21,171 nucleotides of DNA, from positions 1 to 21,171 of the forward strand of contig NZ_SODD01000015.1 of NCBI RefSeq assembly GCF_004365815.1, read 5' to 3'. Below the pieces are notes generated by a model. That model saw nothing but the letters and a program-made list of their open reading frames with translations, was not told the origin of the DNA and searched no databases. A program made the position numbers and the translations under genes. Shown in pieces: positions 900-21,171 of the stretch (positions within the stretch are counted from its first letter, which is position 1; the number at the start of each line of letters is the position of its first letter). The DNA comes from Breznakia blatticola. GTDB lineage: Bacteria > Bacillota_I > Bacilli_A > Erysipelotrichales > Erysipelotrichaceae.

Positions 900-1805
900 T
901 TAGCGTAGATATGTATCTCTAGCACCAACAAAGGCTCCATAGGTTGGACCATTTACCGGCTCTACTAAAGTGAGTGCTGGTAGCAATTTTGCTTTAAACG
1001 CTTGCTTCATTTGTTCAGCATTCCATAAACTTCCACCATAACTTATATTTGTGATGCCTGTTTGTGCATATAAGGTATTTGCTAGAAGTGCTAAATCCGT
1101 TGCTGCCTGTTCAAATATTGCTAGTGCAGCAGGATCTTTTTCCTTTGCTAGTTCATATACATCTAATGATAGTGATGCAAGTTTCTCACGTTTGTTTTCT
1201 AGTGTATCAGAAACAAAAGAAATTATATCGTATGGGCTAGTAAACTCATATTTATTCATCATGTAGGTATAAAGGAAGGTTTGTTTTTTACGCCCATCTG
1301 CTTGTTCGCTAAATTCCTTTAACAACATTTTACCAACTGCATAAGCGCTTCCTTCATCACCAATTTGATAGCCCCAACCACCACTCATCGTAAAGTGATC
1401 TTTTGCTTTTGCATAAGCGATACTTCCAGTTCCTGCAATCACAAGAATTCCATCCGCACCATCGAATGCCCCAAATAAAGCAACTTGTCCATCATTGAAT
1501 ACAACAAATGGAACATCACCAAATGCTTTTTTACATACTTGGTCGGTCTTTTCTTGCATCGGGGCATTACCACCATAGCCACCTAGACCCAATCCAACAT
1601 AAAGTTGGTAAGCTTCATCTTTTGGAAATTGCTCTTTAATAAAGTTAAATCCTTCTTTTAAAAGTTCCACCGATTCAGCTTCACTTTTTTGCATGATATG
1701 TACACTACCTAGAGTGATTGAAGCTAGTTCTTTACCATTTGCATCATATCCGGCAAAGTGTGTTTTTGTGCCTCCACCGTCAATTCCAATAATATATGTT
1801 TTCAT
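900..1805 (-). CDS. BadF/BadG/BcrA/BcrD-type ATPase, N-acetylglucosamine-kinase-like sugar kinase (301 aa)
   Basis: Tracked ORF 900-1832. The preferred start is ATG 1805 (MKTYIIGIDGGGTKT), with AGGAG 8 nt upstream and 16 nt after the stop of the ATPase gene. The tracked ATG at 1832 would overlap that gene. The motifs GIDGGGTKT, IAGTGS and GGWGYQIGDEGS are typical of the NAGK/BadF kinase fold. Confidence 0.8.
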   Translation of the reverse strand: MKTYIIGIDGGGTKTHFAGYDANGKELASITLGSVHIMQKSEAESVELLKEGFNFIKEQFPKDEAYQLYVGLGLGGYGGNAPMQEKTDQVCKKAFGDVPFVVFNDGQVALFGAFDGADGILVIAGTGSIAYAKAKDHFTMSGGWGYQIGDEGSAYAVGKMLLKEFSEQADGRKKQTFLYTYMMNKYEFTSPYDIISFVSDTLENKREKLASLSLDVYELAKEKDPAALAIFEQAATDLALLANTLYAQTGITNISYGGSLWNAEQMKQAFKAKLLPALTLVEPVNGPTYGAFVGARDTYLR

Positions 1806-1821
1806 CCAGTTGACTCCTAAA

Positions 1822-2916
1822 TTATTTGTCAATTCTCAGTGTTGTATCCACATCAAAGAAATGTACTTTTCCTAAATCAAATGTTAATTTTGTTTGTGAA
1901 TGTGATTCAATTCCTAAGCGAGTTGAAACTTTCGCAATTAATGGTTGATCATAAAATGTACCATGTAAAATACTTTCATGTCCTAAAAGCTCACTAATAT
2001 CTACTTGGAAGGTAAAACTTGCACTTGGATAGGTTCCTTCTACAATTCCTTCTGAATAAATATCCTCTGGGCGAATTCCCATAACAACTTCTTTACCTTC
2101 ATAATCCTTAATATCTGAATCGAATTTTTCTGGTAATTCCATATGTAAATCCCCGATTACAAAACTATTATTTTCAATACGTCCATGTAAGAAATTGGTA
2201 GCTGGACTTCCCACAAACCCTGCCACAAACATGTTTGCTGGATTGTTGTAGATTTCTTTTGGTGTTCCAATTTGTTGGATATACCCATCTTTCATTACGA
2301 CAATGCGTGTTGCCATTGTCATCGCTTCTGTTTGGTCATGGGTAACATAAATTGTTGTCGCACCAACACGTTCATGTAATTTGATAATTTCTGAACGCAT
2401 CGCTACACGTAATTTTGCATCCAAGTTACTTAATGGTTCATCCATCAAGAATACTTCTGCATTTCTTACAATTGCACGTCCTAGTGCAACCCTTTGACGT
2501 TGTCCACCCGATAACGCCTTTGGCTTACGGTCTAAATAATCTGTAATTTCAAGAATTTTTGCTGCATCGCGTACACGTGCATCAATTTCAGCTTTTGGTA
2601 CCTTACGGATTTGTAGACCAAAGGCCATATTGTCATACACACTTAAGTGTGGATACAGTGCATACGATTGAAAGACCATGGCGATATCACGATCTTTAGG
2701 TAATACATCATTCATCTTTGCTTCATTGATGAATAGTTCACCTGATGTTATATCTTCAAGACCGGCAATCATACGTAAAGTTGTACTTTTCCCACATCCT
2801 GAAGGACCAACAAAGACGATAAACTCTTTGTCTTTTATTTCCAAGTTGAAATCAAATACCGCTTGGACATTATTATCATAAATTTTATTTATATTTTTTA
2901 GCTGTAGTGTTGCCAT
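1822..2916 (-). CDS. Sugar ABC transporter ATP-binding protein, MsmK/MalK/UgpC type (364 aa)
   Basis: Walker [10 protein letters not shown], signature [14 protein letters not shown], Walker [12 protein letters not shown] and H-loop YVTHDQ are all present. A C-terminal MalK-like regulatory domain follows. The RBS is TAGGAGGAACT-ATG. Confidence 0.93.
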
Positions 2917-2924
2917 AGTTCCTC

Positions 2925-3095
2925 CTATTTATATCGACGATTGTATAGATATAACAATCCAAGTAAACCGCATAATCCAACAAGTTGTACGAGTAGACCT
3001 GCATACCCTATATGTTTTTGTCCTACAATCACCATGGTTAGTGAAGCAATAAAGGTACAAATAATTAAAATTGTTTTAAGTGTTTTATTTTCCAT
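2925..3095 (-). CDS. Untracked small ORF, 56-aa predicted two-TM membrane protein
   Basis: Hand translation gives [56 protein letters not shown]. The ATG at 3093-3095 lies 9 nt after the permease stop and has AGGTG upstream. Its TAG stop (2925-2927) sits inside the Shine-Dalgarno (TAGGAGG) of the ATPase gene. Two hydrophobic helices are separated by GQKH, with a basic C-terminus. At under 60 aa it is below the cut-off of the ORF track. Confidence 0.55.
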
Positions 3096-3104
3096 ATGTA
3101 GCAC

Positions 3105-3974
3105 CTAATCCTTTAATCCACCAAGGGTCATCCCTTGTGTCAGTTTCTTTTGCACCATAATATATAGGATCAATGTTGGTAACATAACAATCACAAGTCC
3201 TGCATACATCGGTCCATAATTTGCTGCTGCTTTTTGCGATTGCATCAAGTTGATTAGACCAACTGGTAATGTTTTACTTGCTCCTGGCATCAAAGTTAAA
3301 GCAATAATGTATTCATTCCAGAAAGACAAGAAGTTAAATAGAATTACCGTGATGATACTTGGCTTTGCCATTGGAATCATTATTTTTACCATCGTGCGGA
3401 AATAGCCAGAACCATCCATATACGCTGCTTCTTCATACGCTTTTGGTAATGTTCTAAAGTAACTTGTTAGTAAGTAGATCGTAAATGGTAGTGCAGTAGC
3501 TGCATAAATAATAGCTAACACCACAATGTTATTCAAAAAGATTCTCTGTCCTATAATTTGTGAAATCCCTTTATCCCAACTTAATAACATCAGGAAGATT
3601 GGTACAACAATATAGTTCACGTTAATGAATAATCCACTCATAAATCCAAGGTTTACAATTTTCTTTCCTTTAAAGCGGAAACGCGCAAGTGCATATGATG
3701 CAGGTAAAGCAACAACCAACAAAATCAGAAGACCCAATCCTGTTGCCACAATGGAATTGATGAAGTACTCACCCATATTCGCTTTATCAATGGCATCAAT
3801 AAAGTTTTGGAAATGAAGGCCAATCGGCATTGTCCATGGACTACCATAGAATTCACTATTTTGTTTCACCGATGCTAGAAACACCCAAGCAACTGGCACA
3901 ATAATAGAAATCGCTAATGTAAATAAGGCTACATATATAAAGATGCGATATAAACGATTTGTTTTTTTATCCAT
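3105..3974 (-). CDS. Carbohydrate ABC transporter permease, MalG-like (289 aa)
   Basis: Six hydrophobic segments. The EAA loop reads YEEAAYMDGSGYFRTMVKIMIPMAKP. The RBS is GGAGGT. Confidence 0.92.
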   Translation of the reverse strand: MDKKTNRLYRIFIYVALFTLAISIIVPVAWVFLASVKQNSEFYGSPWTMPIGLHFQNFIDAIDKANMGEYFINSIVATGLGLLILLVVALPASYALARFRFKGKKIVNLGFMSGLFINVNYIVVPIFLMLLSWDKGISQIIGQRIFLNNIVVLAIIYAATALPFTIYLLTSYFRTLPKAYEEAAYMDGSGYFRTMVKIMIPMAKPSIITVILFNFLSFWNEYIIALTLMPGASKTLPVGLINLMQSQKAAANYGPMYAGLVIVMLPTLILYIMVQKKLTQGMTLGGLKD

Positions 3975-3985
3975 AACATAACCTC

Positions 3986-4879: not shown

Positions 4880-4894
4880 ACGTCTTCCTTTCTT

Positions 4895-4921
4895 AAAAAA
4901 ATAGCGGTGTTGCCACCGCTA
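4895..4921 (-). terminator. GC-rich stem-loop plus T-run between the binding-protein gene and the permease genes (intra-operon attenuator or mRNA stabiliser)
   Basis: The minus strand reads TAGCGGTG-gcaa-CACCGCTA followed by TTTTTTT. It starts 4 nt after the SBP stop and ends ~15 nt before the permease RBS (AAAGGAAG). Confidence 0.65.
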
Positions 4922-4925
4922 CATT

Positions 4926-6269
4926 TTATTTGTTTGCTTCAACAACTTTTTTAAGCCCAGTTAGGAATTCATCATACCATTGATCAACCGTTTTGTCTTT
5001 TGTCATTACTGAGTTTACGGTTCCATATAAGATTCCTTCTGCACCTGTTAAGTCTACACCTTCCACTTGGTTTTCAAGTGCTGCAAATCCAACTGCGTTA
5101 GCTTTTGCACCATTGTCGTAGATTGAGTAGAAAATTTTATTAATGTCATCATCTTTAATGTTGTCAGATGCGTTAACTGTAGGCATTACAGCAGATTTTC
5201 CTTTTGTGTAGAATAATGTAGCTGCTTCATCTGAGTAGCAGTAAGCCATGAATTTTTTAGCTAAATCAACATTTTCTGCACCTTCTGGAATGTACATTTG
5301 TTCTGTGAATGTAGTTGAGTAAGCATCACCATCAGCAGTTACTTTTGGTAAAGCCATCATTCCCCATTCAAATCCTTCAGCTCTTGGTGCATCTTCCATT
5401 TCACCTGGTAACCAAGTTCCATTAGGAATAAATAGTGCTTTGTTGTCTAAGATTGCTTGTTGGTTTTTCGTGAAGTCAGTTCCGTTAGCTTGTGCTACAG
5501 TGTTTGGTTCAATGTATTCAGCAAGTTTTCCAACGATTTCAAATGCTTTTTTCGCATCTTCACTTTCCCAAGTTTTTTCATCATAGTGCATCATTTTGTC
5601 ATATGCATCTGGTCCAGCAGTTTCATTTAATAATGCAGAGAAGAATGCATCAAAGTATCCAGTTGTTGGGTATGTAAATAAAGCAATACCTTCTGCTTTT
5701 GCTTTGTCTCCTAAAGCAAACATTTCATCCCAAGTTGTTGGTACTTCCCATCCTTTTTCAGCAAATAATCCAGCATTGTAGAACAATCCACATGGTGAAT
5801 AGTTAAGTGGTGCTAAGTATAATTTACCATCATCGTAAGGACGTAAGTTTAATGCATCTGTAAATCCAGGAATGATGTTTTCTTTTACAGTTACATCTGA
5901 TCCAGGAATTTTCATGTCTAATAAATCATCAATTGGTTGAATTTGTTTTTCTTTCACCATCGTGTCAGTTAATCCACCTTGTGCTCCAATTGATAGGTAG
6001 ATAATATCAGGAATGTCTTCACCAGCTTGGATTCTTGGACGAAGTACATCTGAGATGTTCTTTTCGAATTCCAATTCTACCTTTACACCTTCGATTTTCT
6101 CAAATTCTTTGGCAACTGCTTCCCAACCGCCAGTTCCAAATCCACCATCAAGTCCTGCAATTTTAAGAACTTTTTCGTCTGTGTCAGCTTCTTTACCAGA
6201 ACCTCCACATCCTGCTAATGCTGTTAACATCACAGCACTCACACAGGCGAACTTCATAAATTTTTTCAT
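4926..6269 (-). CDS. Extracellular solute-binding lipoprotein, family-1 (CUT1) sugar-binding protein (447 aa)
   Basis: The signal peptide carries a lipobox (MLTALAG-C-GGSGK). Size and composition are typical of oligosaccharide SBPs. The RBS is AAAGGAGGA. By context it is the importer for the GH112 substrate disaccharide. Confidence 0.88.
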   Translation of the reverse strand: MKKFMKFACVSAVMLTALAGCGGSGKEADTDEKVLKIAGLDGGFGTGGWEAVAKEFEKIEGVKVELEFEKNISDVLRPRIQAGEDIPDIIYLSIGAQGGLTDTMVKEKQIQPIDDLLDMKIPGSDVTVKENIIPGFTDALNLRPYDDGKLYLAPLNYSPCGLFYNAGLFAEKGWEVPTTWDEMFALGDKAKAEGIALFTYPTTGYFDAFFSALLNETAGPDAYDKMMHYDEKTWESEDAKKAFEIVGKLAEYIEPNTVAQANGTDFTKNQQAILDNKALFIPNGTWLPGEMEDAPRAEGFEWGMMALPKVTADGDAYSTTFTEQMYIPEGAENVDLAKKFMAYCYSDEAATLFYTKGKSAVMPTVNASDNIKDDDINKIFYSIYDNGAKANAVGFAALENQVEGVDLTGAEGILYGTVNSVMTKDKTVDQWYDEFLTGLKKVVEANK

Positions 6270-6327
6270 TGATTCGTATCCTCCTTTTATTGTGTCAAAT
6301 CAATCATCTACTTAAATCATAGTGCAA

Positions 6328-6341: not shown

Positions 6342-6362
6342 CCATACAAGATATTGTCACGT

Positions 6363-6391: not shown

Positions 6392-6407
6392 TATCTCTAA
6401 AACAACA

Positions 6408-8570
6408 TTAGACCGTAAACCATTTGATTTCTGTTGGTTCCAATTCTACTTTGTGGGTTTGGCCATTTGTTGTAAAAACCGTTGCTTCTTGTTTCTCATA
6501 TGTATTGTTTACCACACAGTAACTACTTGTTGATGGATACATATTTACTTCCACATTGTAGTTATCTGCATACCACTCTTCAATTTGATCTTCTTTACCA
6601 GCTGCATAGAACAAACTACGGTATAAAAGTCTCGTGTTTTCAAAGTTAAATGGTAATCCACTCATGTAAACTGCACGTCCTTTTCCATAATTATGCACTG
6701 CCAAGTTCACACTTTTTCCAGTCGTCTTAATTACAGTTGTATCGCGATCAGCATATGCAAATTGCACCTTATTTCCAAAGTTAAGCGTCTCTGGTAAACC
6801 TTTTGTAATGAAGTGTTCATGCTCATCCCAGTTATACTTGTCATGAGATAGGGTGAATCCAACTTCTTTATCTACACCAAGCACATCATATAATTGGAAA
6901 TAGTGTCCTTCTTTTTGATATGCACTAGGATCTCCAATTCCGATAAATCCATTTCCTTGGTATATATATTGACGTATTTTTGTAACGATCGCTTCATTTT
7001 TCCAGTATTCTCCTCCCGAGAATGATGTATATGCATCACCAACGTTTAGAATCACTCCTGGAGTATCAAGTACATCTTGACGTTCTAGTAATTCATCAAA
7101 ACTGATGAATTCGATATCTACTGGCAAACCACTTAGTGCTTCCAAATATCCTTCATAACCATAGTTGTCTTCGTATGGAATGGCATGATGTACCATGTGT
7201 GCACCCCATGAACGTAATTTTCCATACGAGTTAAGTACATATACTTTGAATGGTACACAGTATGGTTGTACTTGATTAACTTTGTCATACAATTCACGGA
7301 ATTCATCAGCAACTTCTTTAACATAGTCGATAAATTCTGGGAACTCCAATGCTAGTTTTAAGTATCCACCATAACCAATACGGTCAACTGGTTTTCGTAA
7401 TATCGCACGTCTTGCAGTTACCCAGTTCACTTTTGCTTCATGTAAAGGATCGCCTCCTTCATGGAACGTATCTGGGAAGAAGTATGGAAGTAATCTTCCT
7501 TCTGTATATTTCACACCTGGAATATCTGAGATGATTCGTAATGTTGAACCATTTCCTACACTTCCTACAACTGCATCCAAGCCAACTTCTTTAAAGTATT
7601 TACCATATGGCTCTGTACCAATCCAGTGATCTCCTAAGAACATCATCGCTTCTTTGCCAGCTTCATGTGTCGCATCAACAAATACTTTCATTAACTTACT
7701 AACTTCAATTTGTTGGAACTCCATGAAATCCTTGAATTCTTTGGTTGGAATGACAAACTGTGAATTGTAAGTTCCTTTGTTAATAATGAACTCTGGTCGA
7801 AATGGATAGCCAGCCCATGCTTCAAACTTTTCTAAAATATAAGGAGAAACACTTGCGTTATAGCCAAACCATTCTACAAATGATTCACGCGCTTGTTCAT
7901 CAAAAATCAATGTAAATTGATGGAAGAATGTTGTAAATCGAATCACATCAATTTCTGGATTTTCTTTTAAGTATCGTTTGAACTTATCAATCACATACGC
8001 TTGCGTCTTTGGTTGACGTACATCATATGTCATTTGATGTTCTTCATCTTTCCAATCATTGGTAATCGCATTGTACATATGTACAGGATCCCAAATAATG
8101 TATGCTAGAAAGCTTACCGTATATGCATGAAATGGTATAGCGTTACGAATTACCACTTCCTGTGTTGCTTCATCATAACTCCAATCTTCAAAGGCTACGA
8201 TTTCACCAGTTGTACGATCGATGACTTCCCACCACTTTGACATGTCATCATTTGTATTTGGTTGTAATAAATCTTTGTAGATATATTTCATGATTGAAAT
8301 TCTCAGTTCATCACTACTTGCACTTTCAAATTGTGACATGATGTATACTTGTTGAATTTCATCTGGGTTTTTTCTTGCCCAGTCATTATCTTTTCTTGTT
8401 GTATAATACGTTGCGTATTTTTTTACATCCAGACTTTTTAGTTCATCTGGCATGACGGTTCCATCGCAATCCCGTATCGCATCTCCACCCCAATAGTCTA
8501 TGATGCGAACGGTTTCACCGATCATATCGATATCTGTAGGGACGGTCAGTCTCCCTTTCTGTTTGCTCAC
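6408..8570 (-). CDS. lnpA: 1,3-beta-galactosyl-N-acetylhexosamine phosphorylase (lacto-N-biose/galacto-N-biose phosphorylase), GH112 (720 aa)
   Basis: GTG start with a GGAGGAG RBS. Long blocks match my memory of Bifidobacterium longum LnpA: YWEVIDRTTGE, YTVSFLAYIIWDPV, VIRFTTFF.QFTL.FDE, GKEAMMFLGDHWIGTEPY, GLDAVVGS.G.G.T.R.I.DIPGVKYTEGR.LPYFFPDTF, YGKGR.VY.SGLP and LL.R.LFYA. Confidence 0.93.
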   Translation of the reverse strand: MSKQKGRLTVPTDIDMIGETVRIIDYWGGDAIRDCDGTVMPDELKSLDVKKYATYYTTRKDNDWARKNPDEIQQVYIMSQFESASSDELRISIMKYIYKDLLQPNTNDDMSKWWEVIDRTTGEIVAFEDWSYDEATQEVVIRNAIPFHAYTVSFLAYIIWDPVHMYNAITNDWKDEEHQMTYDVRQPKTQAYVIDKFKRYLKENPEIDVIRFTTFFHQFTLIFDEQARESFVEWFGYNASVSPYILEKFEAWAGYPFRPEFIINKGTYNSQFVIPTKEFKDFMEFQQIEVSKLMKVFVDATHEAGKEAMMFLGDHWIGTEPYGKYFKEVGLDAVVGSVGNGSTLRIISDIPGVKYTEGRLLPYFFPDTFHEGGDPLHEAKVNWVTARRAILRKPVDRIGYGGYLKLALEFPEFIDYVKEVADEFRELYDKVNQVQPYCVPFKVYVLNSYGKLRSWGAHMVHHAIPYEDNYGYEGYLEALSGLPVDIEFISFDELLERQDVLDTPGVILNVGDAYTSFSGGEYWKNEAIVTKIRQYIYQGNGFIGIGDPSAYQKEGHYFQLYDVLGVDKEVGFTLSHDKYNWDEHEHFITKGLPETLNFGNKVQFAYADRDTTVIKTTGKSVNLAVHNYGKGRAVYMSGLPFNFENTRLLYRSLFYAAGKEDQIEEWYADNYNVEVNMYPSTSSYCVVNNTYEKQEATVFTTNGQTHKVELEPTEIKWFTV

Positions 8571-8830: not shown

Positions 8831-9685
8831 ATGAGTAACAATCGCTATCAAATCATTCGAAAACAACATGAAAAAACGAAGCTTGTTCTTCGTTATATTA
8901 CGCATGCACAAAGGGGTTCAGATTGGCATAGCGTAAAGCATGTCCATGACTTTACAGAGATATTTTTCGTCGTGAATGGCAAGGGACGTTTTCTAATCGA
9001 TAATGAAAGTTTTAGTACATACAGTGATGATGTTGTCATCATCAGTTCCAAAATTCCACATACGGAAAGCCCAATGGAAAATGAAGATTTTGAATACATC
9101 GTATTAGGTGTTGAGGGTTTAGAATTGCAAGATCATAATGGCAATAAATTAGTACGCCAAGTCTTTAATTTAAATAGTGAACATGACAAAATGATGTTTT
9201 ATTTAAATGTACTGTTACAAGAAGTAGAACTTAAAAACGAACGATATGAAGCCATTTGCCACAATATCTTGGAAGTGCTAATCTTTCTAATCATTCGCAG
9301 CAATGATAAACAACTTTCCTATCGAAGTATTACCAAAGGGATGAAAGAATGTGAAATCATTGAAAACTATATTAAAGCAAATTATCATAAAAATATTACA
9401 CTTGATGACCTAAGTGAATTAACGTATTTAAGTAAATTTTATATCAGTCATGCATTTAAACGATATAAAGGAATATCACCGATTTCCTACTTAATTCAAA
9501 CGCGCATACAGCACGCAAAGAAGCTATTAGAGAGCACAAATAAATCAATGGCACAGATTGCTACAGATGTTGGCTTTGTCAGTCAGTCGCACTTCTCACA
9601 AACATTTAAACAAGAAACAAATCATACGCCATTTGAATATCGAAAACTCTCACAAGAACTCAAACAAGATACAGATCGTCAATAA
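8831..9685 (+). CDS. AraC/XylS-family transcriptional regulator, cupin sensor plus HTH_18 (284 aa)
   Basis: The N-terminal cupin-like region reads HVHDFTEIFFVVNGKGRFLIDN...IPHTE. The C-terminal double HTH reads ITLDDLSELTYLSKFYISHAFKRYKGISPISYL...MAQIATDVGFVSQSHFSQTFKQETNHTPFEYR. It is divergent from the phosphorylase operon. Confidence 0.9.
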   Translation: MSNNRYQIIRKQHEKTKLVLRYITHAQRGSDWHSVKHVHDFTEIFFVVNGKGRFLIDNESFSTYSDDVVIISSKIPHTESPMENEDFEYIVLGVEGLELQDHNGNKLVRQVFNLNSEHDKMMFYLNVLLQEVELKNERYEAICHNILEVLIFLIIRSNDKQLSYRSITKGMKECEIIENYIKANYHKNITLDDLSELTYLSKFYISHAFKRYKGISPISYLIQTRIQHAKKLLESTNKSMAQIATDVGFVSQSHFSQTFKQETNHTPFEYRKLSQELKQDTDRQ

Positions 9686-9688
9686 TGC

Positions 9689-12505: not shown

Positions 12506-14002
12506 CTACTTCAAGATGCCAAGGACATTGTTTCCTTGTACATAATTTAAATCATTGGCAAATCGAATCGTCGTTCCATCTTCCACTTCTGCGCGAATTG
12601 CTACCATATATGGTTTTGATGCGTCTGGTCGTGTAAGTTGTACGTTAATTTGCTTATTACCCGGCTGTAATTCACTTGCCTTGCACATACTTGTTGCATC
12701 TACAACAGTTCCCTTTGCATCAAGTAATACAAGTTCCATCTTTGTGACTTTGTGTGGTGCAGAAAATCCGTAGTTAGCAATATCTACAGACACATTTACA
12801 ACATCATCCTTTACTGTTGCTGTTGCACTTTCCACTTTTAAATAGTATCCTAAATAATCACGTAAATATTCAAACATGTTTCGTGGAATGTTGTTCCCAT
12901 CAGCATCCATAAACCATGCTTCATCGTAAGGTAAATCATATGTATCTAAAATGGCTTGGTTCACATATTCGTGTTGCCACTCTGCCATACTATATGTTTT
13001 TCCTTGTTCTTTATTTTGTTCTTTGTAGTTATGTGTCATAGACAGTGAAGTAAAATGATGTTCTTTCATACGTTGTGCAATTAAATATGCATTAATTGCT
13101 TTACCACCTGTATAATATCCATTCGCACTTCCCCAAATCATTTCTCCATCCACGAGAAGTTGTTTGGATTCTTCTGTCATTTTCTTCCACTTTGTCGCAT
13201 TTCTATCTGCTCCTGCAGTATTCCAAGAGTGTAGTACACCAATTAGAAAGTCATCATGGAATGCTACTCGATTATAATCTTCACTTGTATTAGGCACATT
13301 ATTTTCTTTAATGTATGAATAACGTACTTGTACTTGCATATCTTTTGGTGTTGCTGCTAATACTGCATCCATTACCGCCTTATTGTCAATACGAGACATC
13401 GCACCTGAATCCCATTCTCCCCATGCACCAACAATTCCTGCTTGGAATACATGGATTTGATCTTTATGTTCTTCAATGAATGGTTTTACTTGCACCATAT
13501 GACGTTGAATTTGAGCAAGTGTTGGTTCTTGCGATGTTGGATTTGAATCATTTGAAACATATGCAAAACGGAAAATTGCTTTAAGATCATGTTCTTTTAG
13601 CTTATCAAAATAAGCATTCATGTTTTTAAATGCATTATCATCTAAGTCTTTATCCTTATATCCAGTTAGATAAAAATACACTTGAATCAATTTTGGATTA
13701 TCTGACTTGTATGTTGCAATTTCATTTTCCAATTGTTCAATTGCATCTACTGTTTTGTACTCAAATAAACTCTTATTGGTTTCCACATTGAGATACACTT
13801 CCATTCGATATCCACGGTTTGGATTCTCTTGAAGCAACATGCTTTGATTTCCATCTAGACTTTTCACATTGAAGTCATATGTTTTTTCTTTTGGAATCAA
13901 ACTTCTCTGATTTAGTAAAACATTTGTGGAGATCATTCCACCAATTAATGCAAACACTAACATTCCTAGAACGAAGTATTTGCTTCTTCTCAATTTGTCC
14001 AC
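12506..14002 (-). CDS. N-terminally membrane-anchored putative glycoside hydrolase, DUF4874/DUF4832-like TIM-barrel plus C-terminal beta-sandwich (498 aa from GTG 14002; 508 aa from ATG 14032)
   Basis: The tracked ORF is 12506-14032. The ATG at 14032 has no RBS. An internal AAGGGAGGT (14011-14019) lies 7 nt before GTG 14000-14002, giving (M)DKLRRSKYFVLGMLVFALIGGMISTNVLL, a signal-anchor. The motifs ENPNRGY (13811-13825), GIVGAWGEWD (13412-13426), AFHDDFL and VDGEMIWG resemble my memory of the DUF4874/DUF4832 pair of predicted clan GH-A-like hydrolases. This was not verified by search. Confidence 0.6.
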   Translation of the reverse strand: MDKLRRSKYFVLGMLVFALIGGMISTNVLLNQRSLIPKEKTYDFNVKSLDGNQSMLLQENPNRGYRMEVYLNVETNKSLFEYKTVDAIEQLENEIATYKSDNPKLIQVYFYLTGYKDKDLDDNAFKNMNAYFDKLKEHDLKAIFRFAYVSNDSNPTSQEPTLAQIQRHMVQVKPFIEEHKDQIHVFQAGIVGAWGEWDSGAMSRIDNKAVMDAVLAATPKDMQVQVRYSYIKENNVPNTSEDYNRVAFHDDFLIGVLHSWNTAGADRNATKWKKMTEESKQLLVDGEMIWGSANGYYTGGKAINAYLIAQRMKEHHFTSLSMTHNYKEQNKEQGKTYSMAEWQHEYVNQAILDTYDLPYDEAWFMDADGNNIPRNMFEYLRDYLGYYLKVESATATVKDDVVNVSVDIANYGFSAPHKVTKMELVLLDAKGTVVDATSMCKASELQPGNKQINVQLTRPDASKPYMVAIRAEVEDGTTIRFANDLNYVQGNNVLGILK

Positions 14003-14103
14003 AGACGTACCTCCCTTTATGATTACTCTCATCGTAACATTTACACTTTTTTATTTCTTACGCAATAAAGATGAGTATTTAACAAACGTATAAAATATGG
14101 AAC

Positions 14104-14160: not shown

Positions 14161-15033
14161 ATGGATAGAAACGATACACAATTGGAGCATACATTTTTAG
14201 AACAACTACAAGGGAATTTAATACATAACGCTCTAATCCAACACTTACCAGAAAACTATCATTTTGGACCACATACACATCGAAATATAGAAATCTGTGT
14301 CGTTCAAAATGGAGAGTGTGATATTATCATCAATGGAAATCGAGTTACCGTACATAAAAATGAATTTATTGTTTTATTTCCACATGTAATTCATAGTTTT
14401 CAAGTAAAAGAAAATACAACATGCACATTTATGCAAATGCATTTTTACTTGGAACACTTTGAAGCACTAAATTCAAGTCTGAAAAAAGATTTGAAATTTA
14501 TGCAATACCTATCCAAGAAAAGTAAATTGTATATTAAAGCACCAACAACTCATCAAATTCAAAACTGTATGGAGCGTATTACAGAAGAAATGCATCATAG
14601 ACATAGTAAAGGGAATGTCTTATCCAACTTATACATATTTGAAATAGTACTCTTGTTATCTAGAGAGATGGAACCTAATTTTCACAATCAACACAGTGAA
14701 GAAAACTTACATGTCGCAAAAGCGATTCAATACATTCATGAACATATTGAAGAACGTCTACCGCTAGATGAAATTGCGTTATATTGCAATATAAGCAAGC
14801 GACATTTAACCGATTTATTTAAACGTTATTTACGTATCACAGTAAATGACTATGTACAAATCACCAAACTAAATTACATCATGGATTATATGTCCGACCA
14901 TCATACAAATTTGACTGAACTCGCATATCGGTATGGATTTAGTAGTCCACAATACTTCTCAACAATATTCAAGCGTATTGTTGGTGTAAGTCCTAAGGAA
15001 TTCTTAAAGATGAAATCTGTAAAACACAACTGA
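14161..15033 (+). CDS. AraC/XylS-family transcriptional regulator, cupin sensor plus HTH_18 (290 aa)
   Basis: The cupin-like N-terminus reads HTHRNIEICVVQNGECDIIINGNRV...FPHVIHSF. The C-terminal double HTH reads LPLDEIALYCNISKRHLTDLFKRYLRITVNDYV...LTELAYRYGFSSPQYFSTIFKRIVGVSPKEFLK. The RBS is GAGGGA. Confidence 0.9.
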   Translation: MDRNDTQLEHTFLEQLQGNLIHNALIQHLPENYHFGPHTHRNIEICVVQNGECDIIINGNRVTVHKNEFIVLFPHVIHSFQVKENTTCTFMQMHFYLEHFEALNSSLKKDLKFMQYLSKKSKLYIKAPTTHQIQNCMERITEEMHHRHSKGNVLSNLYIFEIVLLLSREMEPNFHNQHSEENLHVAKAIQYIHEHIEERLPLDEIALYCNISKRHLTDLFKRYLRITVNDYVQITKLNYIMDYMSDHHTNLTELAYRYGFSSPQYFSTIFKRIVGVSPKEFLKMKSVKHN

Positions 15034-15044: not shown

Positions 15045-15074
15045 AAAGATCTCTACGGCTTTGTAGAGATCTTT
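15045..15074. terminator. Bidirectional terminator between the convergent AraC and 1680-aa genes
   Basis: AAAGATCTCTAC-ggcttt-GTAGAGATCTTT, a perfect 12-bp stem. It is flanked by an A-run on the left and a T-rich run on the right, so it can serve both strands. Confidence 0.8.
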
Positions 15075-15082
15075 ATTATTAC

Positions 15083-18000
15083 TTATTTCTTTTTCATTTT
15101 TCTTGTATAGCCAACCCCAATCCCTAGTGCAGATAATGCAAGTAACATCAGTAATACATTTATATTTGTTGTATCACCTGTGTCTGTACCATCTGCTGGT
15201 TTATTTGGTTTTTCAGGTGAAATACTTGGCAATTCTTTACTTGGTTCTTTTAGTTGGTTAATTGCATTTGTAAGTTCAACTTTCGCTTGTAGAACATCAC
15301 CAGCTGTTGCATTTGGATCTTCTAAAACTGTTTTTGCTTTTTCTAAAGCATCCACAAATACATTCCAAGAATCTTTTGTGTAATCAGCTTCTTTTAGTTT
15401 AGAACTGTCTTCAACAAGATCTTGCAATTCATCTTTTGCAACTTCTACAGTGCTTGTTAGTTTACTTACTGCATCTAATAATGCATCGTATGCAGCATCC
15501 ACATCACTTTGTAGTGCTTGATCATTTGCTAATACGACATTCGCTTTTGCAAGTGCATCTGCTACAGCTGTCCAAGTTTCTGGCGTATATTCACTTTCAT
15601 CTAACACTTCAACGATATCAACTAATACTTTTAACTCAGCTTTATCTCCAAGTTTTACAAGTGCATCAATTGCCGCTTGTAAGTTTGCAGTAGCACTATC
15701 TAGTTGACTTTGTTTGTCTGCTTCATTAAGTGCTTTCTTTGCTGCATCTAGTGCAGTTTGTAAAGCATTTGCTGTTTCTGTAGTGTATTTACTTTGATCA
15801 ATTTTCTCTGCTTTTGCAATTGCATCTGCAAGTTTTGTCGAATCAAGTTTTACACGAACAAGCGCATCTTTTGCAGTAGTATATGCATCTGTAACACTTG
15901 CAATTGTTTCATCTTCAATATCCAATACATGTGACGCTTCGATTAATGCATCATATGCATCTTTGTAATCTTTATAGCTATCTGCAGTAAAGTATTCTGG
16001 ATCTTCTAATGTTTGTTGAGCTACAAAATCTCTAAATGAGTTGTAATCACCAATTGGTTTAAGTTCTTGGAAGAAACGAAGTTCAACAGCAGCAGCATGT
16101 TTTGCTTGTACTCCATAATCACTTAATACTTTGATTCGTACTGCTGAAGAAGTCACAACATCATCAAAGTAAATCATTTGTGCACCACCATCATTGATTG
16201 TACCTGTTTTTACATCAACCCAATTTCCTTCATCATCTTTCACTTGAATCAAGTAGTCTTTCATGTTTCCATTTGTTTTTGCAGTACGTCCAGTGTACTC
16301 CATAGAATCAAATGATAGTTCTTCACCAAAGTCTAAAGCAATCCAGTGATCACGTGGATCTGGGTATGCTGCAGCCCAGTTTGAGTGCCACAATGTATTT
16401 GTTTTTCCATCGATGGCAAATTTTGCTGGTCCTTCTGTTTGTGATTTTCCATATTCAGAACTTGCTGTTGCAGTCCAATCTGTACGATCTAATTCTTTTG
16501 TTCCTTCAAGGAGTAAACCTTTGAATTGATTTTGTGCATCATCGTATCCAACACTCACATTTTTAAATGTAAGATTTCCAATGAATCCACTAAATTCTTT
16601 ACTACCAACAGTAACTTTTGCATTTGGATTTGTTGGTAGTGATGCATCTGGTAAATAGATTGAGCTATGTAAATTTCCATCTACATACACTTTACATAAA
16701 CCATTTAGTTCTCTAGCTACAGCTACTGTGTGAATTGCATCGTCAGCAACTTGTCCCACATATTTTGTTGTTGTCGTTGTAGGTACATACTCTGCAGTTC
16801 CTACTAATCCATGTTCAAGATCAACTACTTCAGTAATCAATTCTTTTGAAGATAATGTTTCTCCATTAATTGTAGTAACGATATATCCTTCATCATCAAT
16901 TGCGACTGTAAGTCCATCTTGATTGTATACTACGGCATTCTTAGATGCTGTTTTTAGAATAAATGATAGTCCAAATTCACCAACACCGTCAAATGTGTTT
17001 GTATCTTTTAGCTCGTATGCTTTTTTATTCAATCCAAACATCGGAATATCTGCACGTGATAATGATCCTTGAATAACATCAGCATCATCTTTAAAATCAT
17101 CTGTTGTTGTTAAGGCTGCAACTACATGATCTTCATATGCTTTTACTTCTAATGTATCATTTGCTGTGTTTCCTGCAATATCAGCATATGTCACTTTCAC
17201 TTCGTTTGTTTTTGCTAATGGACTATCACATACAACACGAGCAGTACGGTAATCTTCTAGTAAAGTTATTGAACTAACTTCATTTCCTTTAATTGTTACT
17301 GTTAGTTCATCTGAAATACGTTCACTAAAACGAATATCTAATGTTTTATCATCTGTATTTCTAACAACTTCAATTGTTGGTGCTTGACCATCTTGAATTC
17401 CATATTGGTATGCAACCATTTCATATGGCGCAAGTTTTACAGTTACACTATCTCCATAAGAGATTGTTTTATCATCTGCTTTATTTTTGTATGGACAGAT
17501 CTGTGTTTGTTTCACACTTTGTACATCTGTAGCTACACCAGCATTTCCATCATATGTGAATGTATACTCTTTTTCTGATGCTGTTGGGTTTCTAAAGTAT
17601 ACAATTCCTTGATTTCCATCCCATGAAGAGTATCCATAAATTCCTTGTTTTGATTTTGGTGATGAACCAAATAGTTTAGCTTTTTCTAAGATTTCTTCAT
17701 TTGCTTCTGCAAACTCTAGTACATCAGCTGTTACTTTCCATTTTGCATCATCCATCATATCAGGAGAGAAATATAATTCCCAGAATGCAGTTCCACGCAT
17801 TGCATTCGCAAACATGTAGTCTCTGAATTCTTCAGTATTCATTTTTACTCCTGCTGCATTTCCATAAATTGGATCATGGTTGTATACATTTTTCAGTGGG
17901 AATTGGAAGTCTCCATCCACTCCATTCACAAAGTAAACATTATCACGACCAGAAATCATTTTTGCTGATTGTGTACCACCATTCGTCGCATCACTAGCTA

Positions 18001-20125
18001 AGTCTCCAGCATTTTGTTGCCAAACAGTGTTTACCCATTGTAAGTGCCATGGTGAAGGATTCACATAACAAGTTGCATTGATAAACAACCCTTTTCCTTC
18101 CGCAGCTCTTTGTGCTCTCATCGTTTCAAACACATCAATCCAACGTTCCCATAATTCACTTGTATAGTACATGTTGTTGTCTCCACCAACCATGTGTTCA
18201 CTTTCAGCATCTGTACTTGGTCTTGATGCAAATCCATCAAGTTTCCAGTAATCAATATCAAAACGTGCTTGGTAATCTACAAATAGTTTTTCTAATAAAT
18301 CAACATAGTTTTTCGAACTAACATCAATTGCCTTTTTCAAAGCAGCGTTATTGTTTACATATCCAGTTCCTTTACTTTCAAGGTACTCTGAGAATGTTTT
18401 ATTTAATTCGTATCCACCTTGAGGTCCTAACCATAATCCAAATGTCGATGCAAATTTCTTTGTCATTTCCATTGATGGATATAATTCATTCGGGAATTTA
18501 TCATTGAATTCCCAGAATCCAGTACGGTTGTATGAGTTTCCTGAACGACCTACATCGATTCCAGTATATGTTGGATCGTTGTAGTTATTCCATCCATCAT
18601 CAACTACATAAGAATCAAGTGGTTCTACACCATTTTGTGACAATCCTTTTTCTGATGCATAGAAAATACGTTGAATACTTTCATCTGTAATTCCCATACG
18701 GTTTTCATACCAAGAATTGTATTGTGTTCTAAATGTTGTTTTTGTTGCGATTGTATCAATGTATGCAAAGAAATCAGTTTGCACAACATTTTTATCTGTA
18801 CCCACTGCAGCACCAACTACATTTGGCCATGTTTGATAACTACCTTCACTTAATGCACCTTCTGCTTCTAATTGTGCAATACTTTTTCCAGAGTAGTAAC
18901 GGATTTTCATTGTATCTTTTACAATGTTTGTATCTGTTGCTGGGAATTCGCTTCCAAAGAACATTCCATCTGCATAAATTGGTTGCCCAAGTTGCATTTC
19001 TGGAGCTAAGAAGTTATATGCACCTTCTGCTACATAGTAACTATCTGGACGACTCCATACTCCTTCAACTGTATTATCCAACACAAAATGATCCATTTCG
19101 ATGTAGTCAATTCTTGCTTTTTCTTTATCATCGGCATTTACGCGTACAAAACTACGCATAAAGTAATCACCATCTAGCATTGTTACATGGTATGAGAATG
19201 TCCAGTTTACACCATCTTTTTTGTATGGTTTATACATGAATGCAAGTTCTTTACCACCTTGAATTTCATTCACCTTAACTTGATCAATTGTTAAATTTGA
19301 TGAACGAATTACACTATCTTCTTGTACTGCTTTTTCATATGTATCTTCATACAAACGAACTTCTGCCATACAAAATGATTTTGACCCATATACATCTGAT
19401 TTTTGAATCAAACGTACATAACGTGCATTTTGTGGAGTATCAAAGTTAGCATATACTAAATCACCAACATTGTATAAGTTACCTACTTGGTGAATATTGT
19501 AATCCGCTTTCGTGAATTCACCTTCTCCTGCTGCAGTCCAAGTCGTTCCATCATTACTTGTTTGAACTTCATATTCACCAACAGTTCCATTCACTCCCCA
19601 ACTTGCATTTGTACTTCCTTGACGTTTTTGTAATGAAAATGATTTGAATTCTTTTTGTTCTTTCAAATCGATTGTCACTACATAAGGAAATTTATTTCCT
19701 ACGTAGTAATCAATATCTGTTGCATCATTTGCATCAAGAAGTGCAGCTGCATCTTTTGAACCTGTACCATCATTCGTTGCAATCGTTGCTGACCAACCAG
19801 TTCTCGATAACTCTTTTACTGGTTTTACATCTTCGACAACGGTTCCGCCAGAAATAATGTTTACTTCAAAGTCATTTGACTTTGTCGCCGGTTTTAATTG
19901 TTTATTAATTCGATGGTTTGTAATATCTATCGTATTTACATGCCCATCTTCAATTTTAAAATTTCGTGTAAGGTATTCATTACCGATACTTGCCTTATCA
20001 CTTTCATTTGTTACACTCACTGTCGCGCCAGTTTCCTTGTTTAGCGTTTTCTCAGTTTGTGGAAATAATGAAACAATACAGCTCAGTAACAACCCAAGTA
20101 CCAAACTCTTTTTTATTATTTTCAT
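15083..20125 (-). CDS. 1680-aa cell-surface multidomain glycoside hydrolase: F5/8-type-C (CBM32-like) module, clan GH-D (GH27/GH36)-like catalytic core, Ig-like module, LamG/ConA-like module, second F5/8-type-C module, FIVAR stalk and C-terminal TM anchor
   Basis: Signal peptide MKIIKKSLVLGLLLSCIVSLF. The first discoidin module (aa ~105-260) contains WSATIATNDG...YVRL...MAEVRLYE. The core spans aa ~270-905 and carries YVVDDGW (aa 506-512; the DDGW codons are nt 18590-18601). It also carries FGLWLGPQGG, DIDYWKLDGF (K628-L-D630, nt 18236-18244), INATCYVNPSPW and VWQQNAGDLASD. This mirrors the order of the GH36 blocks DDGW / FGLW.EPE / KWDMN / CSSGG / W.SDN.D. The Ig-like module is aa ~915-1000 and the LamG-like module aa ~1005-1200. 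The second discoidin module (aa ~1210-1353) reads DWTATASSE...FAIDGKTNTLWHSNW...AAAVELRFF. FIVAR repeats span aa ~1360-1625. The tail reads TDTGDTTN-INVLLMLLALSALGIGVGY-TRKMKKK. Confidence 0.8.
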   Translation of the reverse strand: MKIIKKSLVLGLLLSCIVSLFPQTEKTLNKETGATVSVTNESDKASIGNEYLTRNFKIEDGHVNTIDITNHRINKQLKPATKSNDFEVNIISGGTVVEDVKPVKELSRTGWSATIATNDGTGSKDAAALLDANDATDIDYYVGNKFPYVVTIDLKEQKEFKSFSLQKRQGSTNASWGVNGTVGEYEVQTSNDGTTWTAAGEGEFTKADYNIHQVGNLYNVGDLVYANFDTPQNARYVRLIQKSDVYGSKSFCMAEVRLYEDTYEKAVQEDSVIRSSNLTIDQVKVNEIQGGKELAFMYKPYKKDGVNWTFSYHVTMLDGDYFMRSFVRVNADDKEKARIDYIEMDHFVLDNTVEGVWSRPDSYYVAEGAYNFLAPEMQLGQPIYADGMFFGSEFPATDTNIVKDTMKIRYYSGKSIAQLEAEGALSEGSYQTWPNVVGAAVGTDKNVVQTDFFAYIDTIATKTTFRTQYNSWYENRMGITDESIQRIFYASEKGLSQNGVEPLDSYVVDDGWNNYNDPTYTGIDVGRSGNSYNRTGFWEFNDKFPNELYPSMEMTKKFASTFGLWLGPQGGYELNKTFSEYLESKGTGYVNNNAALKKAIDVSSKNYVDLLEKLFVDYQARFDIDYWKLDGFASRPSTDAESEHMVGGDNNMYYTSELWERWIDVFETMRAQRAAEGKGLFINATCYVNPSPWHLQWVNTVWQQNAGDLASDATNGGTQSAKMISGRDNVYFVNGVDGDFQFPLKNVYNHDPIYGNAAGVKMNTEEFRDYMFANAMRGTAFWELYFSPDMMDDAKWKVTADVLEFAEANEEILEKAKLFGSSPKSKQGIYGYSSWDGNQGIVYFRNPTASEKEYTFTYDGNAGVATDVQSVKQTQICPYKNKADDKTISYGDSVTVKLAPYEMVAYQYGIQDGQAPTIEVVRNTDDKTLDIRFSERISDELTVTIKGNEVSSITLLEDYRTARVVCDSPLAKTNEVKVTYADIAGNTANDTLEVKAYEDHVVAALTTTDDFKDDADVIQGSLSRADIPMFGLNKKAYELKDTNTFDGVGEFGLSFILKTASKNAVVYNQDGLTVAIDDEGYIVTTINGETLSSKELITEVVDLEHGLVGTAEYVPTTTTTKYVGQVADDAIHTVAVARELNGLCKVYVDGNLHSSIYLPDASLPTNPNAKVTVGSKEFSGFIGNLTFKNVSVGYDDAQNQFKGLLLEGTKELDRTDWTATASSEYGKSQTEGPAKFAIDGKTNTLWHSNWAAAYPDPRDHWIALDFGEELSFDSMEYTGRTAKTNGNMKDYLIQVKDDEGNWVDVKTGTINDGGAQMIYFDDVVTSSAVRIKVLSDYGVQAKHAAAVELRFFQELKPIGDYNSFRDFVAQQTLEDPEYFTADSYKDYKDAYDALIEASHVLDIEDETIASVTDAYTTAKDALVRVKLDSTKLADAIAKAEKIDQSKYTTETANALQTALDAAKKALNEADKQSQLDSATANLQAAIDALVKLGDKAELKVLVDIVEVLDESEYTPETWTAVADALAKANVVLANDQALQSDVDAAYDALLDAVSKLTSTVEVAKDELQDLVEDSSKLKEADYTKDSWNVFVDALEKAKTVLEDPNATAGDVLQAKVELTNAINQLKEPSKELPSISPEKPNKPADGTDTGDTTNINVLLMLLALSALGIGVGYTRKMKKK

Positions 20126-20248: not shown

Positions 20249-20262
20249 TGTAACCGCTAACA
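20249..20262. promoter_or_regulatory. cre box (perfect consensus match) in the leader of the 1680-aa gene
   Basis: TGTAACCGCTAACA (minus strand TGTTAGCGGTTACA) satisfies all fixed positions of TGWNANCGNTNWCA. It lies 12 nt downstream of a minus-strand TATAAT (20275-20280), which is the position of a roadblock or early-transcribed operator. Confidence 0.6.
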
Positions 20263-20274
20263 CTTTATATTTTC

Positions 20275-20280
20275 ATTATA
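20275..20280 (-). promoter_or_regulatory. Candidate -10 hexamer (TATAAT) for the 1680-aa gene; weak -35
   Basis: The minus strand reads aaaattaTATAATgaaaat. The hexamer 17 nt upstream is AAAACA, a poor -35, as expected for an activator-dependent (AraC-type) promoter. It lies ~150 nt upstream of the ATG at 20125. Confidence 0.35.
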
Positions 20281-20340
20281 TAATTTTGAAAATAAAATGT
20301 TTTATGGTTTTTAAGCAATGTTTTGCACTTTTCAGTTTGT

Positions 20341-20380
20341 TTTTTTAAAAAATAGGACCAACGCAATCGTCAGTCCTATT
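20341..20380 (-). terminator. Rho-independent terminator of the partial upstream surface-protein gene
   Basis: The minus strand reads AATAGGAC-(14-nt loop)-GTCCTATT followed by TTTTAAAAAA. It lies ~75 nt after the stop at 20456. Confidence 0.6.
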
Positions 20381-20455
20381 TGAAGCGCACAATAACAATT
20401 GATTTTGACTTCTTTCTATTTTTTGAAGTTATTTATTTTTATTGCGACACTAACT

Positions 20456-21171
20456 TTATGCTTTTTTTCTTTTCTTCAAGCCGTATGCAACTGCAATACC
20501 AGATAGTCCAAGCAATGCGATTAAACCAACTACATTTGTTGAATCTCCAGTGTTTGATCCTCCGTTATTATTGTTTGGTTTGTTAGCTCCGATACTTGGT
20601 AACTCTGTTTTTCCATCTACAGCAACTAATCCATTGATTGCCTTAAGTAAGTTATCATGTGCTGCATCAATTTCTGCTTGTGTTGCATTTGTGTTTGTTA
20701 ACACATCTTTAGCTTTATTTAATGCATCTACATAATTTGCCCATGAATCTTTTGTGTAGTCAGTTTCTTTTAACTTGTCACTATCTTTAATAACAGTTTC
20801 AAGTTTAGAAGAATCTGTGTTTGTATCATCGACTTTCACAAGACCTTTCATTGCATTTTCAAGAGTAGTTTTTGCAATATCTACTGCTTGTTGTGTTGCA
20901 TTTGGATCTGCTACTACTGTTTTTGCATCTGCTAATGCATCTTTAAGAACAGCCCATGAATCTGCAGTATAATCTGTTTCAGTTAATGCTTCTGCATTTG
21001 TAATTACAGTTGTAAGTCCAGTCTTATCAACAACTGCAACTGCTACTAAATCATCAATTGCACTTTCTAGTGCTGCTTTAGCATCATCTACTTCTTGTTG
21101 TGTTGCATTTGTATCTGCTACTACTGTTTTAGCATCTGCTAGTGCATCTTTAAGAACAGCCCATGAATCTG
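20456..21171 (-). CDS. 3' end of a third surface protein (N-terminus outside the window): FIVAR repeats plus the same C-terminal anchor
   Basis: The tracked ORF 20456-20851 starts at an internal Met. I translated the same frame by hand to 21171 and found no stop: ...DSWAVLKDALADAKTVVADTNATQQEVDDAKAALESAIDDLVAVAVVDKTGLTTVITNAEALTETDYTADSWAVLKDALADAKTVVADPNATQQAVDIAKTTLENAMKGLVKVDD.... The tail reads SNTGDSTN-VVGLIALLGLSGIAVAYGL-KKRKKA. Confidence 0.85.
   Translation of the reverse strand, partial: DSWAVLKDALADAKTVVADTNATQQEVDDAKAALESAIDDLVAVAVVDKTGLTTVITNAEALTETDYTADSWAVLKDALADAKTVVADPNATQQAVDIAKTTLENAMKGLVKVDDTNTDSSKLETVIKDSDKLKETDYTKDSWANYVDALNKAKDVLTNTNATQAEIDAAHDNLLKAINGLVAVDGKTELPSIGANKPNNNNGGSNTGDSTNVVGLIALLGLSGIAVAYGLKKRKKA
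20903..21171 (-). repeat. Tandem coding repeat with 210-bp period (one FIVAR module per unit)
   Basis: 21113-21171 (ATCTGCTACTACTGTTTTAGCATCTGCTAGTGCATCTTTAAGAACAGCCCATGAATCTG) is near-identical to 20906-20964, with 2 substitutions and 1 indel by eye. The encoded peptide DSWAVLKDALADAKTVVAD.NATQQ occurs twice. Confidence 0.8.

Follow-up and report, generated by a model that had tools for sequence, protein, structure and literature searches.

A probable mosaic of separately transcribed glycan-foraging units around a GH112 phosphorylase in Breznakia blatticola

The DNA analysed here (the window) is the first 21,171 nt of contig NZ_SODD01000015.1 of Breznakia blatticola, a member of the Erysipelotrichaceae from the cockroach gut. 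It carries the gene of a glycoside hydrolase family 112 (GH112) phosphorylase with an importer operon, and next to it the genes of a 1680-aa surface protein, a membrane-anchored DUF4874/DUF4832 protein, an 889-aa lectin-like protein and the end of a fourth surface protein, raising the question of where the disaccharide used by the phosphorylase comes from. An earlier note on this DNA had proposed one coherent Gram-positive polysaccharide utilization locus (PUL) in which exported hydrolases supply this disaccharide by an undescribed activity. Open reading frames (ORFs) were listed across the window and scanned with Pfam and NCBIfam. The locus is probably a mosaic of four adjacent, separately transcribed glycan-foraging units that are independent of one another in other genomes.

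In the arrangement that we propose, with substrate specificities in Breznakia blatticola that we infer, unit A would comprise an AraC regulator (AraC1) and an operon for CUT1 import, GH112 phosphorolysis and BadF-type hexosamine phosphorylation of galactose-beta1,3-N-acetylgalactosamine or -N-acetylglucosamine (Gal-beta1,3-GalNAc/GlcNAc). Unit B would combine a second AraC regulator (AraC2) with a membrane-anchored DUF4874/DUF4832 glycosidase and a dedicated surface lectin. Unit C would be a surface-anchored GH36+CBM32 exo-alpha-N-acetylgalactosaminidase that trims terminal alpha-GalNAc (Tn antigen, A-type caps) as the monosaccharide, and unit D a FIVAR protein of the cell surface, cut at the contig end so that its enzymatic part is missing. 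The single coherent PUL did not hold up, as the units recur separately elsewhere, the GH36 gene standing alone in Breznakia sp. PF5-3 and the unit B cassette occurring without GH112. The locus is mostly ordinary, adding an insect-gut example to the known GH112 and GH36 alpha-N-acetylgalactosaminidase systems, and one uncharacterised enzyme family, DUF4874/DUF4832, is attached to otherwise known kinds of system. That the GH112 and GH36 units assort independently is of modest interest.

The 1680-aa surface protein and its GH36 relatives

The 1680-aa protein is built, in order, of a signal peptide, a CBM32-like module, a GH36-like core (about residues 271-980), an Ig/LamG-like module, a CBM32, three FIVAR repeats and a C-terminal anchor. 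The core gave no Pfam match of any kind. Its homologues numbered in the hundreds, with 353 confirmed in a genome scan, and a profile of this subgroup searched against the sequences in the PDB reached the GH36 structure 2XN0 only at E 1e-4, across some 130 residues. Judged by sequence, the subgroup is a divergent branch of GH36. The core was also modelled with AlphaFold (predicted local distance difference test score, pLDDT, 87) and the model was compared with solved structures using Foldseek. GH36 alpha-galactosidases came out on top at E 1e-20, with template-modelling (TM) scores of 0.55-0.60 and 10-13% identity over the entire three-domain fold, in agreement with the GH27/GH36-like core described earlier. 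The model contained the N-terminal beta-sandwich, the (beta/alpha)8 barrel and the C-terminal beta-sandwich of GH36. The motifs VVDDGW and YWKxDG were invariant in 20 sequences and correspond to the DDGW and KxD motifs of clan GH-D, with K628 and D630 as the KxD motif and D630 as the candidate nucleophile. GH129 and GH101 were considered for the core and rejected, as the PDB profile search returned GH36 as the sole glycoside hydrolase family and the Foldseek top 50 consisted of GH36, GH31, GH97, GH27 and GH13.

Using BLASTP, the 1680-aa protein was 39% identical over 1614 aa, and 51% identical in the core, to UGRO018_00697 of Hoskinsella mucinilytica. The locus examined from strain UGRO018 (L028) has adjacent ORFs of 6777 nt (2258 aa) and 6105 nt (2034 aa), and the tables of PMC13096917 list the same lengths for UGRO018_00696 (GH31_18+CBM32+CBM32) and UGRO018_00697 (GH36+CBM32) on contig 7. 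Both ORF lengths and the contig agree with the tables, and the identification of the L028 protein with the characterised Hoskinsella protein is secure. UGRO018_00697 was characterised as an exo-enzyme releasing GalNAc (Pudlo et al., J Biol Chem 2026, PMC13096917) and has the CAZy label GH36+CBM32, alpha-N-acetylgalactosaminidase. Both proteins have, in matching order, the N-terminal CBM32-like module, the GH36-like core, the Ig/LamG-like module, the CBM32 and FIVAR repeats, and both have a cell-surface location. The Hoskinsella protein, of 2034 aa and with an LPXTG anchor in its description, adjoins a GH31_18 gene, whereas the window protein has 1680 aa and a tail of TGD[TS][TS]N, membrane segment and basic residues, and is without a GH31 neighbour.

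By homology the 1680-aa protein is a member of the characterised GH36 exo-alpha-N-acetylgalactosaminidase subgroup, and it would be expected to hydrolyse terminal alpha-GalNAc. It would yield a monosaccharide and not the GH112 substrate. The undescribed activity claimed for this enzyme was therefore not borne out, given that a characterised homologue with the same architecture releases GalNAc (PMC13096917).

PMC13096917 also cites GH36 enzymes acting on alpha-GalNAc, one from the A-to-O blood conversion study of Rahfeld et al. 2019 (its ref 73) and one from the work of Calcutt et al. 2002 on a C. perfringens gene (its ref 74). These enzymes are much more distant from the window protein than the Hoskinsella protein is, but share the CAZy family and a related alpha-GalNAc/galactosamine chemistry with it. 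The structure of the F. plautii enzyme, 9AWT, matched the 1680-aa model at E 4e-18 in Foldseek with about 12% identity in the structural alignment. The two enzymes go by the names FpGalNase and AagA and are shorter than the window protein, and the substrate of the F. plautii enzyme is galactosamine.

The gene neighbourhoods of the subgroup were inspected in 80 genome loci with 10-kb flanks. GH112 was found within 10 kb in one of the 80, a locus of Neobacillus mesonae (L009). GH31 was present in 12 loci, GH123 in 6, and GH101, NagA-like and AgaS-like genes in 4 each, and 18 of the 80 loci had neighbours of these kinds. Homologues of DUF4874 or of the lectin were found in none of the 80. The subgroup has a GalNAc theme, yet no conserved link to GH112. 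The GalNAc or mucin-type glycan theme of the earlier note fits these neighbours in 18/80 loci, and the neighbourhood with GH112 was not conserved, at 1/80 GH36-subgroup loci and 0/88 DUF4874/DUF4832 loci. Of the two outcomes that the note had named as refuting, both were obtained for the 1680-aa enzyme (a place in a characterised family, and no conserved neighbourhood with GH112) and the second also for the 498-aa family, and its central idea mostly fails on them. A GH112-linked PUL conserved across genomes was rejected on the same counts.

The Neobacillus mesonae scaffold carries an ABC permease, GH112, a large GH31, a GH36-subgroup member and GH101 in one block (251-19617). Parts of this gene set were seen in several Neobacillus, Virgibacillus and Sporosarcina genomes. 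Neobacillus is a soil genus, and a mucin-type O-glycan toolkit in Neobacillus and its kin was unexpected for such a habitat.

Within the genus Breznakia, strain PF5-3 encodes a 1732-aa GH36 homologue (L001, 9206-14404) that is 58% identical to the window protein over 1610 aa. It stands alone among the UvrA, HprK, Lgt, RapZ and WhiA genes, between a His_Phos_1 gene and RapZ. The place of this copy between conserved housekeeping genes shows that in this genus the GH36 gene moves by itself, as a single-gene unit. In a second Breznakia assembly (L090) the FIVAR fragment, the 1680-aa gene, the AraC gene, the DUF4874/DUF4832 gene and the lectin gene (units D-C-B) were collinear with the window at 86-89% nucleotide identity.

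The DUF4874/DUF4832 protein and its lectin partner

The start codon of the DUF4874/DUF4832 gene is ambiguous, the longest ORF giving 508 aa from an ATG at 14032 and the public annotation 498 aa from 14002. A 498-aa protein with the name Breznakia blatticola matched the window protein at 100% identity. In the AlphaFold model (pLDDT 92) an N-terminal helix precedes a (beta/alpha)8 barrel, and a beta-sandwich forms the C-terminal part. Foldseek matched it best to GH140, GH39, GH5 and GH14 enzymes, all weakly (E about 1e-8, TM 0.3-0.5). Two glutamates did not vary across 26 sequences reaching as low as 26% identity: E196, in GAWGEW after strand 4 (183-187), and E287, in DGE at the end of strand 7 (284-286). 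These residues and the barrel would fit a putative retaining glycosidase of clan GH-A-like type, with E196 as candidate acid/base and E287 as candidate nucleophile. A sequence search of solved structures with the 508-aa and 889-aa proteins returned no match. Pfam confirmed the DUF4874/DUF4832 assignment of the earlier note. No activity of the family was reported in the literature searched, where mentions were incidental (as an accessory gene of a Pel cluster and as a horizontally transferred gene of amphioxus), and the family is named neither in a 2026 preprint on B. thetaiotaomicron O-glycans nor in its supplements.

The 889-aa protein contains three discoidin-like modules that are mutually related at E 1e-8 to 1e-9, and Pfam found no enzyme domain in it. 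Pfam and the module comparison thus agree with the earlier account of three lectin-like modules and no enzyme. A metagenome scan for DUF4874/DUF4832 found at least 433 relatives, and 88 loci were inspected. GH112, the GH36 alpha-N-acetylgalactosaminidase subgroup and GH101 were absent from all 88. Contigs with a DUF4874 protein named by NCBI as Lachnospiraceae had a divergent AraC gene (product 48% identical to AraC2), the DUF4874/DUF4832 gene and then a homologue of the 889-aa protein. In one such contig the gene downstream of DUF4874 encoded a protein 30% identical to the 889-aa protein over 540 aa (E 6e-69). A counterpart of AraC2, 43-48% identical, occupied the same position in L082-85 and L091-93, and AraC, DUF4874/DUF4832 and the lectin homologue were found together in L082-85, L091 and L092, which are clostridial contigs with no GH112. 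In L088 and L089 the enzyme-lectin pair stood alone among glycolytic and housekeeping genes. The DUF4874/DUF4832 and 889-aa genes belong together, and AraC2 is part of the conserved cassette.

Two tandem DUF4874/DUF4832 paralogues were observed in Lacticaseibacillus rhamnosus (L086, 8572-13067) and Lactobacillus apis (L087, 10001-12909), of which only one carries a membrane or signal segment at its N-terminus. These genes adjoin a mannose-class (AGA-type) phosphotransferase system (PTS) and LacI regulators, and the L. rhamnosus locus also has a GH27-like gene and a lectin homologue.

Bacteroidetes loci from human-gut metagenomes contained more distant members of this Pfam family, with 30-37% identity to the window protein. 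This set comprised L113, L130, L154 and about 45 other loci (L094-L170). These loci contain an extracytoplasmic function (ECF) sigma factor, an anti-sigma factor, SusC, SusD, GH16, the DUF4874-like gene, GH89 and a GH31 alpha-galactosidase, in roughly this order where checked. The best solved relative of the GH16 protein was 1UPS, an endo-beta-galactosidase releasing GlcNAc-alpha1,4-Gal, and the GH31 alpha-galactosidase scored 790 bits to 8J53. The gene set suggests that host mucin glycans are the target, and the DUF4874-like gene looks like a component of a PUL for alpha-GlcNAc-capped mucin glycans. Unlike the window, these are outer-membrane PUL systems with no lectin partner, no AraC and no GH112. 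With its at least 433 relatives, the conserved AraC-enzyme-lectin cassette, the lactobacillar paralogues and the Bacteroidetes PUL-like members, the DUF4874/DUF4832 family offers enzymology a defined target.

The GH112 operon and the source of its substrate

The GH112 protein matched PF09508, PF17385 and PF17386 end to end, scored 960 bits against TIGR02336 (cut-off 560) and reached 711 bits against the B. longum lacto-N-biose phosphorylase (PDB 2ZUS). On these matches the family assignment is secure. The CUT1 importer encoded beside it was complete, with an SBP_bac_1 solute-binding protein (SBP), two BPD_transp_1 permeases and an MsmK/MalK-type ATPase in Pfam, and the GH112 match with a dedicated importer alongside upheld the intracellular logic described earlier. 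The substrate preference is predicted to be galacto-N-biose or lacto-N-biose (GNB/LNB; Gal-beta1,3-GalNAc/GlcNAc). The CPR_0540-type SBP and the hexosamine-kinase-like gene lend indirect support to GNB/LNB over Gal-beta1,4-L-rhamnose specificity. The kinase scored 101 bits against NCBIfam NagK_SO3507, below the cut-off of 370.

In the GNB/LNB pathway of B. longum (lnpABCD and a GNB/LNB-binding ABC transporter) GH112 likewise adjoins a CUT1 ABC importer, and the window SBP falls in the CPR_0540 family of C. perfringens, which has a GNB phosphorylase locus. In contrast to these two systems, the window is without NahK, GalT and GalE, has a BadF-type kinase in their place and has a regulator of the AraC type.

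Catalytic domains of GH101, GH20 or GH136/LnbX were found by Pfam and NCBIfam in none of the complete ORFs of the window. The earlier statement that the extracellular half lacks every known disaccharide-releasing family thus applies to these ORFs only, the fourth exported gene running off the window. The GH101 model PF12905 detected GH101 in another locus (L029), so the model works. NCBIfam LnbX matched FIVAR tails only, at 65-72 bits against a cut-off of 2500. Compared with the known releasers (GH101 EngBF/SpGH101, GH20 LnbB, GH136 LnbX), the window shares LnbX-like FIVAR tails, as in other surface glycosidases, and has none of their catalytic domains in its complete ORFs. The source of the GH112 substrate most likely lies outside the readable window, in unit D, in a gene elsewhere in the genome or in other gut bacteria.

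The fourth protein of unit D has the FIVAR-plus-anchor tail found on the other surface proteins. The contig of the second Breznakia assembly starts (its position 5) at the point corresponding to the right end of the window at 21171, and the fourth gene is broken in both. Since the two assemblies stop within one and the same FIVAR-repeat gene, that gene is cut by repeat-induced assembly gaps in both Breznakia genomes. The best database match of the fourth-protein tail was another partial Breznakia protein, a Logan contig also ends inside the gene, and an exact look-up made for the protein (P0121) gave no match.

Some points weigh against a mosaic containing an alpha-N-acetylgalactosaminidase. 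The Pfam GH36 models (Melibiase, Glyco_hydro_36N, Glyco_hydro_36C) gave no match to the 1680-aa protein at E <=0.01, the specificity of the GH36 enzyme could differ at 39-51% identity to its characterised homologue, and the clustering of four glycan units in a block kept in two Breznakia species could reflect a genus-specific functional pathway. Other explanations concern the source of the disaccharide. A canonical releaser is possible but rather unlikely in our judgement; here a GH101, GH20 or GH136 enzyme would be encoded by the cut fourth FIVAR gene or elsewhere in the genome, and the whole would be a standard mucin-type O-glycan system. The presence of GH31 and GH101 in the N. mesonae locus, the sole other one with both the GH36 subgroup and GH112, is in keeping with this, as are GH101 in 4 of the 80 loci and a fourth protein that shares its tail with the other surface proteins and is cut in both Breznakia assemblies. 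FIVAR tails, however, are borne by many enzyme families, and the fourth protein is readable in its C-terminal part only. The GH112 operon might also scavenge GNB/LNB set free by other gut bacteria, without any releaser of its own, while the surface enzymes beside it serve other sugars such as GalNAc. GH112 is unlinked almost everywhere from both surface-enzyme families, the H. mucinilytica GH112 genes UGRO018_02077 and 02082 have locus tags distant from the GH36 gene (PMC13096917), and separate regulators and terminators lie within the window. Scavenging would nevertheless leave the adjacency of the units in two Breznakia species unexplained, and we regard it as doubtful.

Much less probable is a third source, a novel kind of glycosidase in the form of the DUF4874/DUF4832 enzyme with its lectin as helper, which would free the beta-linked disaccharide Gal-beta1,3-N-acetylhexosamine (HexNAc) from host glycans and feed the GH112 importer next to it. 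The DUF4874/DUF4832 gene has the GH112 operon on one side and the GH36 gene on the other, its family is uncharacterised in the literature searched, and its model is a glycosidase-like barrel with two invariant glutamates. The secreted and cytoplasmic lactobacillar paralogues beside a mannose-class PTS are compatible with oligosaccharide release and import, and the distant Bacteroidetes relatives stand in loci resembling host-glycan PULs. In principle the modelled protein may be a beta-linked biosidase. Against this, GH112 was absent from the DUF4874/DUF4832 loci, the cassette has its own AraC regulator and is also found alone among housekeeping genes, and the structural matches were weak. A clan GH-A-like fold would further imply beta-glycosidase chemistry and exclude cleavage of the alpha-GalNAc-Ser/Thr bond, which is the commonest route to GNB and which a clan GH-A enzyme could not cut. 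The cassette could feed GH112, adjacency in Breznakia being the sole argument for it. That DUF4874/DUF4832 and the discoidin-type lectin are an undescribed two-protein surface glycosidase system, a new GH family releasing Gal-beta1,3-HexNAc from insect glycoconjugates, is a long shot; if true, the pair would provide a fourth and structurally unrelated way of obtaining GNB or LNB. The mosaic of independent units remains the reading that we prefer.

Gene map, surface anchors and transcription units

The features of the window are collected in Table 1. The ORF listing with Pfam and NCBIfam bore out the gene positions of the earlier note almost exactly, including the insertion sequence remnant at the left edge, which is an ISL3 transposase fragment, and the two AraC regulators. 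AraC1 and AraC2 showed kinship in the helix-turn-helix region only (26% over 94 aa).

Table 1. Features of the 21,171-nt window of Breznakia blatticola.
Feature	Position	Strand	Evidence
ISL3-family transposase fragment, C-terminal part only	162..734	+	Pfam DDE_Tnp_ISL3, E 2e-17, profile positions 125-240 of 240
Sugar kinase of BadF/BadG/BcrA/BcrD type, resembling N-acetylglucosamine kinase; final gene of GH112 operon	900..1832	-	Pfam BcrAD_BadFG, E 5e-31
MsmK-type ABC ATPase	1822..2916	-	Pfam ABC_tran + OB_MalK
Two CUT1 ABC permeases	3105-3974 and 3986-4879	-	Pfam BPD_transp_1 in each
CUT1 SBP, CPR_0540 type	4926..6269	-	NCBIfam TIGR03850, 612 bits, cut-off 299
GH112 phosphorylase	6408..8570	-	Pfam Lact_bio_phlase, LBP_M, LBP_C; TIGR02336
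AraC regulator 1, divergent from GH112 operon	8831..9685	+	Pfam AraC_binding + HTH_18
889-aa surface lectin-like protein: signal peptide, three discoidin-like modules, three FIVAR, C-terminal membrane anchor	9825..12494	-	Pfam
Membrane-anchored DUF4874/DUF4832 protein, putative glycosidase	12506..14032	-	Pfam
AraC regulator 2, divergent from DUF4874-lectin pair	14161..15033	+	Pfam
Terminator-like hairpin, 13-pair stem, between convergent AraC2 and 1680-aa genes	15045..15074		
1680-aa surface GH36+CBM32 exo-alpha-N-acetylgalactosaminidase homologue	15083..20125	-	
Catabolite-responsive element (cre)-like site upstream of 1680-aa gene	20249..20262	+	Exact match to TGWAANCGNTNWCA
C-terminal 237 aa of fourth surface protein: FIVAR repeats + anchor	20456..21171	-	Pfam FIVAR

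The C-termini of the three FIVAR proteins (15083-15230, 9825-9970 and 20456-20600) share the pattern [DN]T[GS]D[TS]TN, followed by about 20 hydrophobic residues and a K/R-rich tail, and read DTGDTTN, DTSDTTN and NTGDSTN. No LPXTG motif was present in these three tails, though the sister protein is annotated at NCBI as an LPXTG anchor protein. The layout resembles the tripartite one of sortase substrates, and may represent a variant sorting signal of Breznakia. Between the 1680-aa and 889-aa proteins the FIVAR-plus-anchor tails had 53% identity over 253 aa, a level that points to shuffling of a common tail cassette.

Terminator-like stems were found 3' of the kinase gene at 891-865 and 3' of the 889-aa gene at 9773-9739, in addition to the hairpin after the 1680-aa gene. 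Because such hairpins follow the kinase, 889-aa and 1680-aa genes, we infer separate transcription units and the operon boundaries at the locus, in support of the separate units of the earlier note. Its cre boxes stood in part. One exact match to TGWAANCGNTNWCA was present, the only one in the window, and at least one match occurred in 9/100 shuffles. A second cre consensus matched only inside the SBP gene, leaving at most one plausible cre site. An Rfam scan of the whole window gave no match. A GC-rich hairpin followed by a T-run was observed at 4901-4922, directly downstream of the SBP gene and before the first permease gene, and this may be an intra-operon attenuator that raises SBP expression relative to the permeases.

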